Shown here in pieces: positions 46,883 to 63,325 of a stretch of DNA of 64,000 nucleotides. Where the stretch lies: NCBI GenBank assembly GCA_963823665.1, contig CAWGMQ010000006.1:864001-928000 (forward strand), written 5' to 3'. Both the position numbers and the translations under genes were made by a program. Under the pieces are notes generated by a model. The model had not been told where the DNA came from. It did no database searches and worked only from the letters and a program-made list of their open reading frames with translations. This stretch comes from an uncultured Planctomycetota bacterium (lineage in GTDB: Bacteria; Planctomycetota; Planctomycetia; Isosphaerales; Isosphaeraceae). Each line of letters starts with the position of its first letter. Within the stretch, counting starts at the first letter, position 1.

Positions 46883-47025
46883 GGGAATTCAAGACACCCA
46901 TCCGTTGTCACGGCCCTCCGCATCCATTCATTCGTGGCACGCAAATTCGGTGCAAAACCACGGCCTCTGGTCATTTCGAGCACGCAGAAGGCCAGTGCCC
47001 GACGCTCGGCAAACGGTGGGTGTCT
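46883..47025 (+). mobile_element. ~145-bp inverted-repeat element (MITE/REPIN-like), copy 1; right arm interrupted by intron 1
   Basis: AGACACCCATCC...GGTGGGTGTCT; arm completed by GCCATCC at 49038-49044. Confidence 0.85.
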
Positions 47026-49037
47026 TTGCGTCAGGAAAAGCTCGAGAAAGGGGGAAGTGCCTCGAAACACAGAAACCTTTCATCGCGACCCTGCGGGTTA
47101 ACGAATCCCGCCCGGCAGAGCCTGGCCGGCAGCCGGAAGCAAGTCTTGCGTGGGGAGGGGTGACCCTCACTGCGAAGCGTAGACAGCGAGTCCCCATGCC
47201 ATGCTATCGAGCCCCGAAATACTCATCGTGGGAGCCTCCGTTGTAGACACAAGCGGGGGCCGCGTCGACACGCCGCAATGGCCTGGCGTGTTCGGTCCTG
47301 CCGGGGTCCAAGAACATGGCGCAGGGACGCGAGGGTTGCTCGGGAACCTGAGAGCCCCATCCGTCTCCACTGACATTTCCGGCTCGGGAACCGGAATACC
47401 AACTCCCCGGCCCACGACCCCGCGTCGGGTCGCTGGGAGCGAACAGGACGCAAGGGTGGTATCGCCACACGAAGGCAACGAAGTGCGGCGAAAGGGGCGG
47501 ATGGGAGTCGGAGCGTCTCGTAGTACCGTTGAAGCCGGGGAACCACTCCGAGGGACCCGGTGGAGGGAAGGAGACGCCATGTCACACAACCGTTGGAGGG
47601 AAACATGGCGGGTGCATCGGAACCCGTGGACGTGTCCACGAAACAACAACGGATAGCGGAACTCGCTCGGCGAAGCCCGGAGATGGGATTCACATCCCTG
47701 GGGCACTTCATCGACCTCGATTGGCTGCTCACAGCTTACTACCGGACCCGCCAAGACGGGGCGGTGGGCGTAGACGGACAAGATGGCGAGGCCTACGCAG
47801 CGAACCTGGTCCCGAACCTACGGTCGCTGCTGGAACGAGCCAAGTCCGGTACGTACCACGCACCGCCTGTGCGGCGAGTGCATATCCCCAAGGCAGGCTC
47901 AGCGACCGAAACCCGGCCACTGGGAATCCCGACCTTCGAGGATAAAGTGCTCCAGCGTGCTGTCGTGATGGTTCTGGAGGCGATATACGAGCAGGACTTC
48001 AAGAACTGCTCGCATGGCTTCCGGCCCGAGCGATCGGCACACACTGCGTCAGAGAGCCTGTGGCAACAGACGATGAACATGAAGGGCGGATGGGTAGTGG
48101 ATGTGGACATTCGTAAGTTCTTTGACACGATTGACCACGGCCATCTACGCGACTTCCTCAAGCGTCGGGTGCGAGACGGAGTGCTGCTCCGGCTCATCGG
48201 CAAATGGCTCAATGCGGGCGTCTTCGAGAACGGGTGCGTTACGCACCCCGAAATGGGGTCGCCACAAGGGGGTGTGATCAGCCCGATCCTTTCGAATATC
48301 TTCCTGCACTACGTGCTGGACGAGTGGTTCGAGCGGGAGGTTCAGCCTCGGATGATGGGCAGATCGTTCTTGATCCGCTATGCGGACGACTTCGTCATGG
48401 TCTTCTCATGCGAGTCCGACGCACGGCGTGTGATGAATGTGTTGCCCAAACGCTTTGAGAAGTACGGCTTGACCATCCACCCGGACAAGACGCGGCTGGT
48501 GCCGTTCGAGCGGCCATCGGACCGTCCCAAACCGGAAGGCGGACCCCCGCGAACTCCACCAGGGACATTCGACCTGCTGGCGTTCACGCATTACTGGGGT
48601 CGCTCCCGGCAGGGTCGCTGGGTGGTGAAGCGCAAGACGTCCAAAAGTCGATTTCGCCGAGGCCTGCGAACGTTGGCGGACTGGTGTCGCAAAAATCGAC
48701 ATCTACCGCTCAAGGTGCAGCACCGGATACTAGGTCAGAAACTGCTAGGCCACTATGCCTACTACGGAATCACCGGCAACTCCAAAATGTTGTCACGGTT
48801 TCGCAGTGGTGCCACCTGGCTCTGGCAGCACTGGCTGTCGCGCCGCGGGCGCGGCCGTCGGATGACATGGGAACGGTTCGCTCGGTTCCTGAAGCATAAA
48901 CCGCTTCCGGCAGCGATTGCGATCCACTCAGTATGCCGTCTCGTAGCGAACAAGTGACATGACGAGCCGGGTGCCTTAATTGGGCAAGCCCGGCTCTGTG
49001 GGAGCCTTGGGGGAGCGATCCCCCAAGGCGACCCGGC
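47026..49037 (+). mobile_element. Group II intron 1 (bacterial class E-like, RT-encoding)
   Basis: 5' TTGCG; EBS1 AGACAC 47245-47250 pairs with exon GTGTCT; D5 48964-48996 (AGC triad); D6 ends GACCCGGC. Confidence 0.92.
47605..48957 (+). CDS. ltrA: Group II intron reverse transcriptase/maturase without endonuclease
   Basis: GGAGG RBS; RPLGIPTFED, DIRKFFD, GSPQGG, RYADD; domain X GHYAYYG; no HNH. Confidence 0.95.
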   Translation: MAGASEPVDVSTKQQRIAELARRSPEMGFTSLGHFIDLDWLLTAYYRTRQDGAVGVDGQDGEAYAANLVPNLRSLLERAKSGTYHAPPVRRVHIPKAGSATETRPLGIPTFEDKVLQRAVVMVLEAIYEQDFKNCSHGFRPERSAHTASESLWQQTMNMKGGWVVDVDIRKFFDTIDHGHLRDFLKRRVRDGVLLRLIGKWLNAGVFENGCVTHPEMGSPQGGVISPILSNIFLHYVLDEWFEREVQPRMMGRSFLIRYADDFVMVFSCESDARRVMNVLPKRFEKYGLTIHPDKTRLVPFERPSDRPKPEGGPPRTPPGTFDLLAFTHYWGRSRQGRWVVKRKTSKSRFRRGLRTLADWCRKNRHLPLKVQHRILGQKLLGHYAYYGITGNSKMLSRFRSGATWLWQHWLSRRGRGRRMTWERFARFLKHKPLPAAIAIHSVCRLVANK

Positions 49038-49781
49038 GCCATCCTGAGATCGATGGGTGTCTGCCATCCCTGCGCCAAGAAGCTCGGAAAAGGAGGATCA
49101 TCTCAAATGTGAAACCTTTTAGCGGAACCCTGCGGGTAACCAATCCCGTCCGGCAGAGCCGGGCCAGCAGCCGGAAGTGAGTCTTGCGTGGGGAGAGGCG
49201 ACTCTCACTGCGAAGCGTAGACAGCGAGATCAAACGCTGTGCGATTGAGCCTCGAAATTTTCCCTCTTTGTCCTGAGCCCTCGTCCTTGTCTGACGCGGG
49301 GGCCGAGCCGGGCATTAGCGAAACCTGGACCCACTAGCGTGCCCGGTCAGACCGGGGTCGGAGAACATGGCGAATGATCAGTAGGGTTCCCCGGGAACTT
49401 GGGAGACCTTGTCGTTTCCATCGTGACGGCCGGCCGGAGCACCGGCTTACCAACTCCAGGTTGATCCACAGCTCTGTCCCGAGCTGGTGGGGACGAACAG
49501 GGGACGAACGATGGTATCGCCAAGCGAAGGAAACGAAGCGCGGCGAAATGGACGGCAAGGAGTCGGAGTGCCCCATAGTAGTGTTGAAGCGGGGGAACGG
49601 CCCTCCGGACCCTGTGGAGCGAAGGGGGCACCGCGTTGTGGATGGGAAGTTGGAACCACGCCGAGGACACCGTGCCTCACCAGCGTGTCACCGCGAAACG
49701 ACCTAGTCGTGTGAGGGACAGTGATTCCCCAACGTGACGAGCCGGATGCCTCTTCGACGGGCAAGTCCGGATCTGTGGGAA

Positions 49782-52201
49782 TCGCGAAACGAAGCTGCGG
49801 ATGAGTCTGTTATGACTGGATTTGCAACCAGGACATAACCCGATGTACGACCACCGGAACCCTACCAGGACGTGCGGCCGGAGCAATCCGACCGTGCGAA
49901 GCTCTTGGGACAACGTAACCTCACCTTCGGGTGGTTGGATATCCCGTGAGGGAATCCGGCGACTGCGAACGCCAATGCGGTCGGGGGCCAGGGGTGGATG
50001 GCATGGCTAATCCAGGTGAACTGCCGATAAACGTCGTGAGATCCAACAAGCCAAAGGCGCTGAGAGGCTTGAACCAAAAAGGTACGTGGCCAGGTACAGT
50101 GGGATTTCCCATCCCCTGTCGTCGTCATCCGAGCCACCGGCGGAGAGGCAGAGCCTAAACCATCCGTGATTCATCCGTGGAACGTGGTAAGCCCGTCGCC
50201 CTCCCTTCGGGGTAGGACCGTCGTAAGGCGTCGCCGATGGGGCGGCGGGTGGAGGATGAGGGAGCAAGCCAATGCCGTTCGGTAGTCGATCGGATAGAGG
50301 GTGAGTCCTCCCACGGACGACATCCCCTCACCGCGAAAGCGGTGCCGACTTCCCTCAGGTGTTCCGTCACGAGAGAACCTTGGCCAACCGACTCAGGGAG
50401 ACAAGCAGATATGTCGGCGGCAGAAATGCTTGCTGGTGCGGCTCCCGAGCTTACGCCCGACTGGCACTCCATCGAATGGAAGAAAGTCTGGCGCACAGTC
50501 CGTCGGCTCCAGGCGCGTATCGTGAAGGCTGTTGCGGAGGGCAGATGGAATAAGGTCAAGGCTCTGGTTTATCTGCTCACGCACTCGTTCAGTGGCCGGG
50601 CCCTGGCCATTTTGCGAGTCATCAGTAATTCGGGTGCGAAGACTCCCGGTGTGGACGGAGTTCTCTGGAACACACCGGAAGCCAAGTCGGCTGCTTTCAG
50701 CACTCTGCGTCGGCACGGTTACCAACCGCAACCGCTCCGCCGGGTGTACATTCCCAAAAGCAACGGCAAGCGACGTCCTCTCGGAATTCCCACCATGTCA
50801 GATCGAGCCATGCAGGCATTATACTTGCTAGGCCTCGATCCCATTGCGGAATCTCGAGCCGACGGCCATTCCTATGGCTTTCGGCTGGAACGTCGTTGTG
50901 CCGACGCCCTGGAACAATCTCATATTGTCTTGGGTAATCGGAGCGGTCCAGCATGGATTCTCGAAGGGGACATCAAAGCTTGCTTTGATCGCATCAGTCA
51001 TGACTGGCTCTTGACGCACGTCCCCATGGACCGGCAGTTGCTCGGGCAATGGCTGAAAGTGGGTTTCCTGGAGAAGCACGCCTGGTTCGCCACCACGGAA
51101 GGAACACCTCAAGGCGGGATCATTTCACCCGTCCTGGCGAATTGGACTCTGGATGGACTGCAACGGCTGTTGGCGGAACAGTTCGCCGAGAAGCACGGGC
51201 GACAACGGAAGTTTAAAGTCCACCTGGTCCGCTATGCGGATGACTTCTTGATCACGGGCATCTCAAAGGAACTCCTCCGTGACCAAGTGCAACCTCTCGT
51301 GGCTCATTTCTTGAAGGAACGCGGCTTGGAACTTTCCCACGAGAAAACCCAGATCACGCATGTGGAGGATGGCTTCGATTTCTTGGGGCAGAATGTGCGA
51401 CGCTATCGCTGCGGCAAGGTGTTCACCAAGCCGTCCTTGCGAAACGTGAAGACGTTCTTGAACAAGATACAGGAAACGATCGACGGCTCGGGCAGCCTAA
51501 CGGCAGGAGAGATGATCTGGCGTTTGAATCAGCAGATCAAGGGCTGGACCATGTACCACCGTTACGCGGCGAGCAAGCGCACTTTTACGTACGTGGATCA
51601 CCGGATTTTCCAGAAATTGTGGCGTTGGTGTCGACGACGGCACCAGAACAAAGGCCGGAGGTGGATCAAGGAGAAATACTTCCAGCAAGACGGTTACCGC
51701 CACTGGGTCTTCACCGGTACGCTGTTTGACCAGAAAGGCCAAGGCCGGCCGATCCAGTTGATGGAAGCAGCCAAAGTGAAGATCATTCGTTATGTGAAGA
51801 TCCGGAGCGACGTGAATCCCTACGATCCGAAGTGGGAACTGTACCTGGAAGCACGACTGGGTTGGCAACTGAGCCAAACGCTGGCAGGTCGGGGTCGGAT
51901 CGAATACTTATGGAAGGAACAAGAGGGACGATGCGTGGTCTGTGGTCAACCGCTGCGGATCGCAGAGGAAGACTTGCATCTCCACCATCGCATCTGGCGC
52001 AGCCGGGGCGGTTCTGGCACAGCCGACAACCTGGAGTTGTTGCATGCCAACTGTCATCGGCAGATCCATGTCCAAGAACGACTGACGAAAGCGGCCGCGT
52101 CCTGCGAGGGGCGTTCGTGAAGGCTTGAGCTGCATGAAGGGAAACTTTCACGTGCAGTTCTGAGGGGAGGGGGTGGCGGTAACGTCACCTCCTTACCCGG
52201 C
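49782..52201 (+). mobile_element. Group II intron 3 (CL1-like); inner intron of the twintron
   Basis: 5' TCGCGAAACGAAGCTGCGGATGAG; EBS2 AGATCC 50039-50044; EBS1 TTCCCA 50106-50111; D5 52127-52160; ends TTACCCGGC. Confidence 0.9.
50411..52120 (+). CDS. ltrA: Group II intron RT/maturase with RVT_N and HNH endonuclease domains
   Basis: WHSIEW...[35 protein letters not shown]...HH...GG...NL...HANCHRQIH. Confidence 0.95.
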
Positions 52202-52234
52202 CCCGGGGCGGGCAACCGCCCTGGGTGACCCGGC

Positions 52235-52372
52235 CCCATCCAGTTGTCACGGTCGCCCGCATCCATTCATTTGCGGCTCGCTCGTTCGGCGCAAAACCAC
52301 GGCCCCCGGTCATTTCGAACACGCAGAAGGTCAGTGCCCGACGCCCGACAAAAGGTGCGTGTGTGACATCCC
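52235..52372 (+). mobile_element. Inverted-repeat element copy 2 (left arm cut by intron 2; right arm degenerate and empty)
   Basis: Begins CCCATCC; same core as copy 1; ends GTGTGTGACATCCC. Confidence 0.8.
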
Positions 52373-53226: not shown

Positions 53227-53377
53227 GGAATCCAGGCACCGATCCTTTGTCTCACGGCCTCCGCATCCATTCATTCGCGGCTCGCTCGTTCGGTGCAAAA
53301 CCACGGCCTCTGGTCATTTCGAACACGCAGAAGGCCAGTGCCCGACGCTCGGCAAACGGTGGGTGTCTGACATCCCC
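53227..53377 (+). mobile_element. Inverted-repeat element copy 3 (intron-free, empty site)
   Basis: GGAATCCAGGCACCGATCC...GGTGGGTGTCTGACATCCCC uninterrupted. Confidence 0.88.
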
Positions 53378-56053: not shown

Positions 56054-56196
56054 GGGATTCCAGACACCCATCCTTTGTCTCACGGCCTCCACATCCATTC
56101 ATTCGCGGCTCGCTCGTTCGGCGCAAAACCACGGCCTCTGGTCAAGTCGAACACGCAGAAGGCCAGTGCCCGATGCTCGGCAAACGGTGGGTGTCT
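56054..56196 (+). mobile_element. Inverted-repeat element copy 4; right arm interrupted by intron 4
   Basis: GGGATTCCAGACACCCATCC...GGTGGGTGTCT; GGCATCC resumes at 56929. Confidence 0.88.
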
Positions 56197-56928
56197 TTGC
56201 GTCAGGAAAGCTCGAGAAAGGAGGAAGTGCCTCGAAACACAGAAACCTTTCATCGCGACCCTGCGGGTTAACGAATCCCGCCCGGCAGAGCCTGGCCGGC
56301 AGCCGGAAGCAAGTCTTGCGTGGGGAGGGGTGACCCTCACTGCGAAGCGTAGACAGCGAGTCTCCATGCCATGCTATCGAGCCCCGAAATACTCATCGTG
56401 GGAGCCTCCGTTGTAGACACAAGCGGGGGCCGTGTCGACACGCCGCAATGGCCTGGCGTGTTCGGTCCTGCCGGGGTCCAAGAACATGGCGCAGGGACGC
56501 GAGGGTTGCTCGGGAACCTGAGAGCCCCATCCGTCTCCACTGACATTTCCGGCTCGGGAACCGGAATACCAACTCCCCGGCCCACGACCCCGCGTCGGGT
56601 CGCTGGGAGCGAACAAGACGCAAGGGTGGTATCGCCAAACGAAGGCAACGAAGTGCGGCGAAATGGGCGGACGGGAGTCGGAGTGCTCCGTAGTAGCAGT
56701 GAAGCGGGGGAATGGGCCCTCCCAGACCCTGTGGAGCGAAGGGGGTACCGTGTCGCGGACTGGAAGCCGGAACCACGCCGAGGGCATTGGACCTCAGAGC
56801 GCGTCACCGCGAGGCGACCAGATCGTGTGAGGGACAGCGACGCCGCGACATGACGAGCCGGATGCCTTAATTGGGCACGTCCGGATCAGTGGGAGCCCTG
56901 GCGGAGCGATCCGCCAGGGCGACCCGGC
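56197..56928 (+). mobile_element. Group II intron 4 (ORF-less, 732 nt)
   Basis: TTGCG start; EBS1 AGACAC 56415-56420; D5 56855-56887; intact D6 ending GACCCGGC; no RT ORF. Confidence 0.92.
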
Positions 56929-58502: not shown

Positions 58503-58644
58503 GGTTTCCAGACACCCATCCTTTGTCCCACGGCCCCCGCATCCATTCATTCGCGGCTCGCACGCTCGGCGGAAAACCACGGCCTCTGGTCAATTCGAAC
58601 ACGCAGAAGGCGAGTGCCCGACGCTCGGCAAACGGTGGGTGTCT
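58503..58644 (+). mobile_element. Inverted-repeat element copy 5; right arm interrupted by intron 5
   Basis: GGTTTCCAGACACCCATCC (preceded by an extra GGTTTCCAGA)...GGTGGGTGTCT; GGCATCCC resumes at 59377. Confidence 0.88.
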
Positions 58645-59376
58645 TTGCGTCAGGAAAGCTCGAGAAAGGAGGAAGTGCCTCGAAACACAGAAACCTTTCA
58701 TCGCGACCCTGCGGGTTAACGAATCCCGCCCGGCAGAGCCTGGCCGGCAGCCGGAAGCAAGTCTTGCGTGGGGAGGGGTGACCCTCACTGCGAAGCGTAG
58801 ACAGCGAGTCTCCATGCCATGCTATCGAGCCCCGAAATACTCATCGTGGGAGCCTCCGTTGTAGACACAAGCGGGGGCCGTGTCGACACGCCGCAATGGC
58901 CTGGCGTGTTCGGTCCTGCCGGGGTCCAAGAACATGGCGCAGGGACGCGAGGGTTGCTCGGGAACCTGAGAGCCCCATCCGTCTCCACTGACATTTCCGG
59001 CTCGGGAACCGGAATACCAACTCCCCGGCCCACGACCCCGCGTCGGGTCGCTGGGAGCGAACAAGACGCAAGGGTGGTATCGCCAAACGAAGGCAACGAA
59101 GTGCGGCGAAATGGGCGGACGGGAGTCGGAGTGCTCCGTAGTAGCAGTGAAGCGGGGGAATGGGCCCTCCCAGACCCTGTGGAGCGAAGGGGGTACCGTG
59201 TCGCGGACTGGAAGCCGGAACCACGCCGAGGGCATTGGACCTCAGAGCGCGTCACCGCGAGGCGACCAGATCGTGTGAGGGACAGCGACGCCGCGACATG
59301 ACGAGCCGGATGCCTTAATTGGGCACGTCCGGATCAGTGGGAGCCCTGGCGGAGCGATCCGCCAGGGCGACCCGGC
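58645..59376 (+). mobile_element. Group II intron 5 (ORF-less, 732 nt; identical to intron 4 by eye)
   Basis: Same termini; EBS1 58863-58868; D5 59303-59335. Confidence 0.92.
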
Positions 59377-62768: not shown

Positions 62769-62812
62769 GGGACGGAAACTGGGACGCACGGGGACGGAAA
62801 CTGGGACGCACG
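62769..62812 (+). repeat. Exact 22-bp tandem duplication GGGACGGAAACTGGGACGCACG (REP-like)
   Basis: Two adjacent copies ending ~40 nt upstream of a RAYT-like start codon. Confidence 0.85.
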
Positions 62813-62854: not shown

Positions 62855-62995
62855 ATGCCAAGAACAGCGAGGGTAGCAGCTTGGGGCTTTGTCTATCACG
62901 TCCTGAACCGATCCGTCGGCAGGATGCACATGTTCCGCAAGGAGTCCGACTTCGAGGCGTTCGAGCGTGTCATGGTTGAAGCTCACCTGCGGCAA
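62855..62995 (+). pseudogene. N-terminal stub of a RAYT-like (Y1 HUH) transposase
   Basis: MPRTAR...GFVYHVLNRSVGRMHMFRKESDFEAFERVM; ends before the HUH motif. Confidence 0.8.
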
Positions 62996-63325
62996 CGTCC
63001 TCGCCAACGAGATCGCTGGTCACAAGGCGGAGCGGCGGCCGAGGGCCGGAGAAGAATGGCTTGCCGCGACCAAGTACGATGGGGTGGATGTAAAGTCGAT
63101 GCTCATCAATAAGACCAAAGTTGGTTAGGCTTCCTGCCAAGTCTGGTCCGGCAACTTCAATCTCCCCAACTGGCTGTGCCTTCAGCCCACGTATCACCGC
63201 CTCGATGTCATCCTCGACAAGTGTGGCGTTGGGTCCGACCGACTTCAACGTGCGCGACACAACCCACTTCGGCTGGCTCCGCCACGCCGCCGCGAAGTCG
63301 TGTTCCTCCGCGCCCCAACGCCTCT
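62996..63325 (-). pseudogene. Fragment of a dihydrofolate reductase/RibD C-terminal family protein
   Basis: PKWVVSRTL...GPDLAGSL...GLIDEHRLYIHPIVLGRGKPFF; both ends missing. Confidence 0.75.

Follow-up and report, generated by a model that had tools for sequence, protein, structure and literature searches.

Why does one group II intron lie in the catalytic end of another, and is it programmed to be there? The question is raised by a locus in the window (the whole 64,000-nt stretch of DNA analysed here), where five group II intron units occur between 47.0 and 59.4 kb, the third of which, the inner intron, is inserted in an ORF-less host. In its layout the arrangement is that of a twintron: one entire intron sits inside another, and taking the inner one out precisely restores the host. 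From comparison of sequences, the inner element very probably belongs to a specialised IIB1/CL1-like lineage whose EBS read the 3' strand of D5 and the start of D6 of other introns. This lineage is widespread and seems to make its living by parasitising introns. The features of the locus are as follows.

47026..49037, + strand: intron 1, an RT-encoding relative of the host, uninvaded, with target variant GGCTCT
49070..49781, + strand: host ORF-less group II intron, 5' part, from D1 to the start of D6 (Rfam D1-D4-6, 111.8 bits; starts CTGCG)
49768..49781, + strand: target, comprising IBS2a, IBS2 (3' strand of host D5), a linker and IBS1 (5' strand of host D6)
49782..52201, + strand: inner group II intron, IIB1/CL1-like, 2,420 nt, TCGCG...GGC (seven identical genomic copies)
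50038..50044, + strand: the inner intron's EBS2a (G50038), partner of position -8 (A50039) and EBS2 (GATCC) (assigned by the scheme of PMC8643678 and PMC10100991; covariation)
50106..50111, + strand: the inner intron's EBS1 (TTCCCA), in the loop of a predicted domain I hairpin
50253..50279, + strand: apparent crossover interval, with a D5/D6-targeting ribozyme upstream and domain IV and ORF of another lineage downstream (informative sites; identity profile)
50411..52120, + strand: intron-encoded protein, 569 aa, with RT (YADD intact), maturase and HNH endonuclease
52125..52201, + strand: the inner intron's own D5/D6 (Rfam RF00029, 63.4 bits; U-A pair in D5 versus C-G in hosts)
52202..52234, + strand: 3' remainder of the host, with the upper D6 hairpin, branch A (52228) and 3' end
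56197..56928, + strand: intron 4, an ORF-less relative of the host, uninvaded, with target variant GGATCA
58645..59376, + strand: intron 5, a copy of intron 4, uninvaded

The inner intron matches Rfam D1-D4-7 at 49839-49988 (105.5 bits), its RF00029 match has a D5/D6 structure with the AGC triad and a bulged A, and its ORF contains RVT_N, RVT_1, GIIM and HNH domains. The best solved relative of the protein is 6ME0/6MEC (E 7e-181; LtrA E 9e-39). The former entry derives from a Thermosynechococcus IIB1/CL1 protein and 6MEC is likewise IIB1/CL1 (PMC8643678). Judged by its sequence, this RT-X-En protein is nearest to CL1 proteins. In all seven copies in the window's genome the intron begins TCGCG and ends GC (the group II norm is GUGYG-like at the 5' end and AY-like at the 3' end), and its relatives begin TTGCG, GTGCG or CTGCG and end GC or AC. 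Since TCGCG (49782-49786) is shared by all seven identical copies, and a 98% identical relative (L039) has TTGCG, this start seems compatible with mobility.

The first-pass annotation had claimed a perfect EBS pairing with the host, and this is what we find: AGATCC (50039-50044) pairs with GGATCT (49769-49774), and TTCCCA (50106-50111) with TGGGAA (49776-49781). By the published IIB1 scheme, EBS2 is limited to 5 bp (GATCC) and the preceding A is the partner of position -8 (PMC8643678, PMC10100991). The EBS2a-IBS2a pair at -14 described for IIB1 introns (PMC8643678) is formed here by G50038 and C49768. By chance the 12-base target should be matched exactly about 0.015 times in the window, where one such match was found; this figure and a shuffle control in metagenomic sites (below) rule out chance pairing. 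The insertion had been placed at the D5-D6 junction; programming against D5/D6 is strongly supported, but the cut lies 7 nt past D5, inside the 5' strand of D6, where it faces the branch-site bulge (branch A 52228). Removing 49782-52201 does leave a clean D6, as had been proposed (fold -31.3 kcal/mol, bulged A at 52228), in a host (49070-52234) of 745 nt without the inner intron, and the near-matching targets reported in introns 1, 4 and 5 are present as quoted.

The window's genome (G000) contains seven full copies of the inner intron, all identical, and one 182-nt 3' fragment. The position in D6 is the same for all seven full copies, a D6 remainder also follows the fragment, and the flanks differ among the seven host copies. 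A one-off accident is ruled out by these copies together with the metagenomic sites. Four of the hosts are RT-encoding introns of the intron 1 type, two are ORF-less introns of the window-host type and one is of the intron 4 type. The three types are about 72-91% alike whereas their passengers are 100% identical, so at least three independent insertions are needed, and seven identical copies at separate sites imply, as far as sequence identity can tell, recent mobility. Both this contrast and the far greater diversity of metagenomic hosts (among the matches listed) argue against a twintron that moves or splices as a composite unit, its occupied sites representing one old insertion carried along by the hosts. 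We regard that account as unlikely, although composite ('zombie') twintrons are known in organelles (PMC8393795), the upper D6 hairpin is computed to fold by itself in the 33-nt host tail (-23.3 kcal/mol) and D5-loop variants are common to two pairs of RT-type hosts.

Copies in D5/D6 are also seen beyond this genome. In G061, a genome of the same family, six of the seven copies seen lie in D5/D6 of varied hosts and the seventh in non-intron DNA; all five D5-pattern sites there are occupied, and one more copy lies in a degenerate D5. Close 5' ends of the inner intron were found in 4 of 120 genomes of the family (best five candidates scored per genome), 400 sampled genomes from the phylum gave no further exact match to the EBS2 pattern, and a plasmid search returned partial matches of 60-90% only. 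Some remnants are rearranged: at L244 (G038:C230) and L247:804 (G000:C3) the 5' arm of D5 has been swapped for an inverted or foreign segment, L244 containing an inner-intron copy that internal deletion has reduced to 646 nt, and the junction at L144/L172 resembles these. Other group II intron families in G000 (L259-L263) have GGTTTG in D5. The four of them that match D6 in full carry no insertion, which fits the mismatch of GGTTTG with EBS2.

We scanned metagenomes with the intron's own EBS2 loop, not with its target, using a pattern that fixed a CL1-like context. At least 120 loci were recovered, of which 14 had no 5' end found, six had too little exon and 100 could be scored. A D5 hairpin lies in register at 88 of the 100, or at 69 of 80 distinct sites among the matches listed (the test failed at the other 11), and 13.8% pass after shuffling of the exon sequence that lies upstream of the binding sites. 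The first-pass annotation had pointed to the insertion sites of same-EBS relatives, which would speak against it if they lay mainly in non-intron DNA; they lie mostly in introns, at these 69 of 80 distinct sites and at all seven in G000. The 69 sites span 34 intron clusters at 90% identity (among the matches listed), and in the 20 loci scanned for this the upstream hosts fall into two or more Rfam D1-D4 families. When the flanks of 21 full-length members were rejoined, a D6 hairpin was evident by eye in 13, likely in 3 more and absent in 5.

Pairing at these 69 sites, again among the matches listed, shows covariation. The third base of EBS2 and host position -11 are A/T at 43 sites, T/A at 13, A/A at 6, T/T at none and other at 7; with one site per cluster the counts are 24, 5, 0, 0 and 5 (p 8e-6). 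EBS2a and -14 form a Watson-Crick pair at 63 of 69, EBS1 pairing beats all 1,000 permutations while admitting wobble, and host position -8 is T at 47 sites, G at 18, A at 2 and C at 2. The wobble, the 18 sites with G at -8 and four partially paired copies outside introns (L152, L173, L185 and L238) would suit a survivor bias, in which a loose GG(A/T)TC-N-N-purine-rich target offers many places for insertion and only harmless copies within introns persist. This is very improbable in our judgement: changes in EBS2 track the D5 base of the host class, for which selection on the intron for a D5 target is needed, and the seven G000 copies, identical and hence recent, are all in introns. We favour the reading of a lineage programmed for D5/D6.

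Departures from the usual site occur. L088 and L089 also have EBS2 AGATCC, yet a different EBS1 and non-intron sites. One member of the D5-targeting RNA clade (L107, in G003) has a changed EBS and a non-intron site, which suggests that the lineage can retarget. One lineage member (L202) immediately follows another intron's 3' end, in tandem, and a second (L236) comes after a D6 end. At L065:1337-5616 there is a three-level nest, a host intron containing a D5/D6-targeter that in turn contains an RT intron ending at the targeter's YADD codons.

The closest relatives of the inner intron by protein are a different set of 66 loci, mostly Planctomycetota records, which show 76-89% identity but differ in their EBS and in their targets. 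L039 alone lies at D5/D6 among their 32 scorable 5' junctions, which rules out that the closest protein relatives share the target (1/32); L062 and L092 passed a crude D5 score with no visible D5, and D6 remainders occur on the 3' side of three more loci (L065, L086 and L096). Because the target is not shared by these relatives, we tested for a chimera. Informative sites divide 67 to 7 in favour of the D5 lineage over the other up to 50290 and 13 to 250 from 50290 to the stop codon, with a single switch along the inner intron. In the protein tree (a quick IQ-TREE run; L156, whose ORF is the host's, was left out of the second tree), the window's protein joins 17 protein-closest rows (SH-aLRT 100), apart from 23 other D5-lineage rows. 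In the RNA tree its 5' region falls within the D5-targeters, a group of 22 rows and one member that has been retargeted, with support 0.85. L238 and L144 are labelled D5 in these trees by lineage, though neither copy sits at a full D5, and two D5 clades fall in an unresolved group of the protein tree, where monophyly was not recovered. The same chimeric arrangement is present in L039 and L129 (98% and 96% protein identity to the window element). An origin of domains I-III from the D5/D6-targeting lineage, and of domain IV plus ORF from one that has different targets, is thus well supported by sequence comparison. As the element kept its target after taking a foreign domain IV and ORF, target choice follows the RNA and not the protein; the chimera is a natural test of whether target choice lies in the RNA and domain IV plus protein is an exchangeable module. 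Two CL1-like relatives (L069 and L073, with 5' and 3' junctions) lie at one conserved site of a transposase gene, which we take to be IS5-like.

It had also been argued that the host cannot easily mutate this target. That is true of the D5 core, where -13 is G at 68 of 69 sites (among the matches listed), but not of the linker position -8 or of position -11, both of which vary. Host-family sites in G000 number 23 by the D5 pattern and 24 with one further occupied site outside it, and 15 of the 24, mostly near-copies of one family, carry a change at -8 or -11 and are all uninvaded. Occupancy is 7/9 for GGATCT, 0/14 for GGATCA and 0/1 for GGCTCT; the Fisher p of 1e-4 for 7/9 versus 0/15 exaggerates the contrast, as 13 GGATCA sites represent near-copies within a single ORF-less family. 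The single intron-4-type copy with GGATCT is occupied, and so are four sister copies of intron 1 with GGATCT. Perfect targets can be empty, as are two of the nine in G000 and all 11 D5-pattern sites in G005, a genome with one copy. In the related IIB1 targetron TeI3c/4c, breaking the A/T pair at -8 by intron-side changes reduced success from 100% to 2/18 (PMC10100991). Resistance would account for the empty GGATCA family, but so would a later spread of that family.

A second peculiarity concerns the targeters themselves. At their own equivalent of -13, 16 of 16 distinct metagenomic members (among the matches listed) have A or C together with a base that compensates on the partner strand, and so do the window, G061 and G005 elements, as opposed to the near-invariant G of hosts. 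Pairing of EBS2 with the element's own D5 site is computed at -0.2 versus -6.7 kcal/mol, and chances that the odd D5 pair serves self-avoidance seem about even on these comparisons. The alternative, that GGATCA and GGCTCT hosts are not resistant (having spread after the burst, or being empty by chance) and that the odd pair is merely inherited, comes close to an even prospect. The near-copies inflating the GGATCA count agree with it, as do a degenerate relative behind GGATCA in G038, the two of 69 sites with A at -8 (among the matches listed) and a computed EBS2 duplex energy that -8A hardly alters (-6.6 versus -6.7 kcal/mol); for inheritance speak a non-G at the -13 equivalent in 8 of 18 distant, non-targeting relatives and a lineage member, L180, inside a host with a U-A type D5. 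Against it stand the occupancies of 0/15 and 7/9, the occupied intron-4-type copy, the targetron result and the 16 of 16 targeters. More tentatively, and on balance doubtfully, the whole might be a hyperparasitic lineage in a base-pair arms race, which would track D5 variants through EBS2, spare itself through a compensatory D5 pair (self/non-self discrimination by a ribozyme), disable hosts by taking a strand of their catalytic helix, select for escape in the linker and swap its whole protein module while keeping its target.

The steps of group II retrohoming are reverse splicing, cleavage by the HNH domain and target-primed reverse transcription. On this pathway the lariat RNP would reverse-splice into host DNA 7 nt past D5, the HNH domain would cut the opposite strand and the RT would copy the RNA, so that landing would occur only in DNA already occupied by another retroelement, at a site that nearly every group II intron offers. 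Within the precursor, the inner intron would pair with the 3' strand of host D5 and the 5' strand of D6, both needed for the host's catalytic and branch helices, and inner-first splicing would thereby be favoured. Hosts excised after their passenger would be passenger-free and home as fresh targets, and the niche would thus be renewed as well as safe (in DNA already spent on a retroelement) and universal. Freeing IBS2 is computed to cost host D5 about 6.6 kcal/mol and EBS2 pairing returns about as much, which may set the two ribozymes in competition for a single strand: a win for the inner intron would give the inner-first order, whereas a host tolerating a 2.4-kb insertion in D6 would give composite excision. 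The strict dependence of host splicing on inner splicing that had been suggested is plausible from the sequence. In RNA, 21 runs gave small shares, and the contigs of four were relatives' pieces with no informative splice joint.

At the window locus itself the order of splicing may be moot, because the host EBS1 (TGTCTG, 49288-49293) cannot pair with its 5' exon, CCATCC. Of the host's sister copies, five follow CAGACA and one CAGACG, while another, whose EBS1 is changed, follows the complement of that EBS1. The host ribozyme looks whole despite its unpaired 5' exon, and its 5' junction looks rearranged against intron 1. This host is probably without accurate splicing and, with the 5' exon read by its own EBS1 absent, may not splice at all.

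Homing of introns into other introns is already known, at the YADD motif and in domain IV. Like the YADD-homing group (M.a.I5, UA.I3, P.l.I2 and B.th.I3), which inserts at the RT active-site motif (Tourasse & Kolsto 2008, PMC2504315), the present introns are relatives that share a target in a conserved part of retroelements and form twintrons. That group is both bacterial and archaeal and, as described there, targets an RT coding motif, has no endonuclease and uses no ORF-less hosts; the inner intron falls outside this type, with its D5/D6 ribozyme target, its HNH domain and its use of ORF-less hosts. The F3-in-F1 twintrons of Thermosynechococcus elongatus (Mohr et al. 2010, PMC2882425) are also IIB1/CL1, with identical inner copies in diverged hosts that were interpreted there as independent homing. 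Their inner introns have no ORF and, within a single species, occupy domain IV of close kin, where a start codon lies on either side, whereas here the inner intron carries its own RT-HNH and enters D5/D6 of unrelated classes. In the Euglena psbF twintron (Copertino & Hallick 1991; PMC8393795) a group II intron likewise lies within the catalytic end of another, but in domain V and as a single fixed organellar arrangement, unlike the mobile, site-programmed lineage in D6. The Trichodesmium T.e.I7/T.e.I8 twintron (Pfreundt & Hess 2015, PMC4649490), for which sequential splicing was demonstrated, also has an IIB1 inner intron in another intron's ribozyme, though in domain 1, at one locus of one genus. 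The specialised IIB1 clade of EcKTE56.groEL is similarly a CL1 subclade marked by a recurring genetic context, in its case start and stop codons of housekeeping genes, and has a large domain Ia insertion (PMC12584367). Such an insertion is lacking here, the EBS2 motif lying about 245-250 nt from the 5' end in most lineage members (among the matches listed). Nested intron arrays are known in Methanosarcina (review, PMC4424553). No lineage programmed for D5/D6 was found in the main texts searched, though such a twintron may be listed elsewhere. Standard intron pipelines discard twintrons (PMC4028801), which may explain why the lineage has been overlooked so far.

The niche of this lineage is a feature common to almost all group II introns, so that any intron-bearing genome would be colonisable at no added cost to its genes. 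The assumption, already in print (PMC4649490), that insertion into an essential site maintains an inner intron can now be put to a direct test on numerous natural pairs of host and parasite, among them candidate escape alleles within a single genome.

The host family has a target of its own, a dispersed repeat of about 135 nt with inverted ends (AGACACCC...GGGTGTCT), found in the window at 46890-47025, 52235-52345, 53235-53370, 56060-56196 and 58510-58644. Introns of the intron 1 and 4 types sit after GGGTGTCT of this repeat at the 17 copies checked (one GGGTGTCC), and host-type introns after CAGACA, at its opposite end. We read the repeat as presumably REP-like. At 62856-63000 there is a gene start that, by its motif, we take to resemble a REP-associated or IS200-like transposase; it is broken off after about 50 codons and preceded by a short tandem repeat (62770-62810). 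Between 52498 and 53178 a small ORF, which has no Pfam match, is followed by a broken gene that we assume from its motif to be PIN-like, the two together possibly being a toxin-antitoxin remnant.
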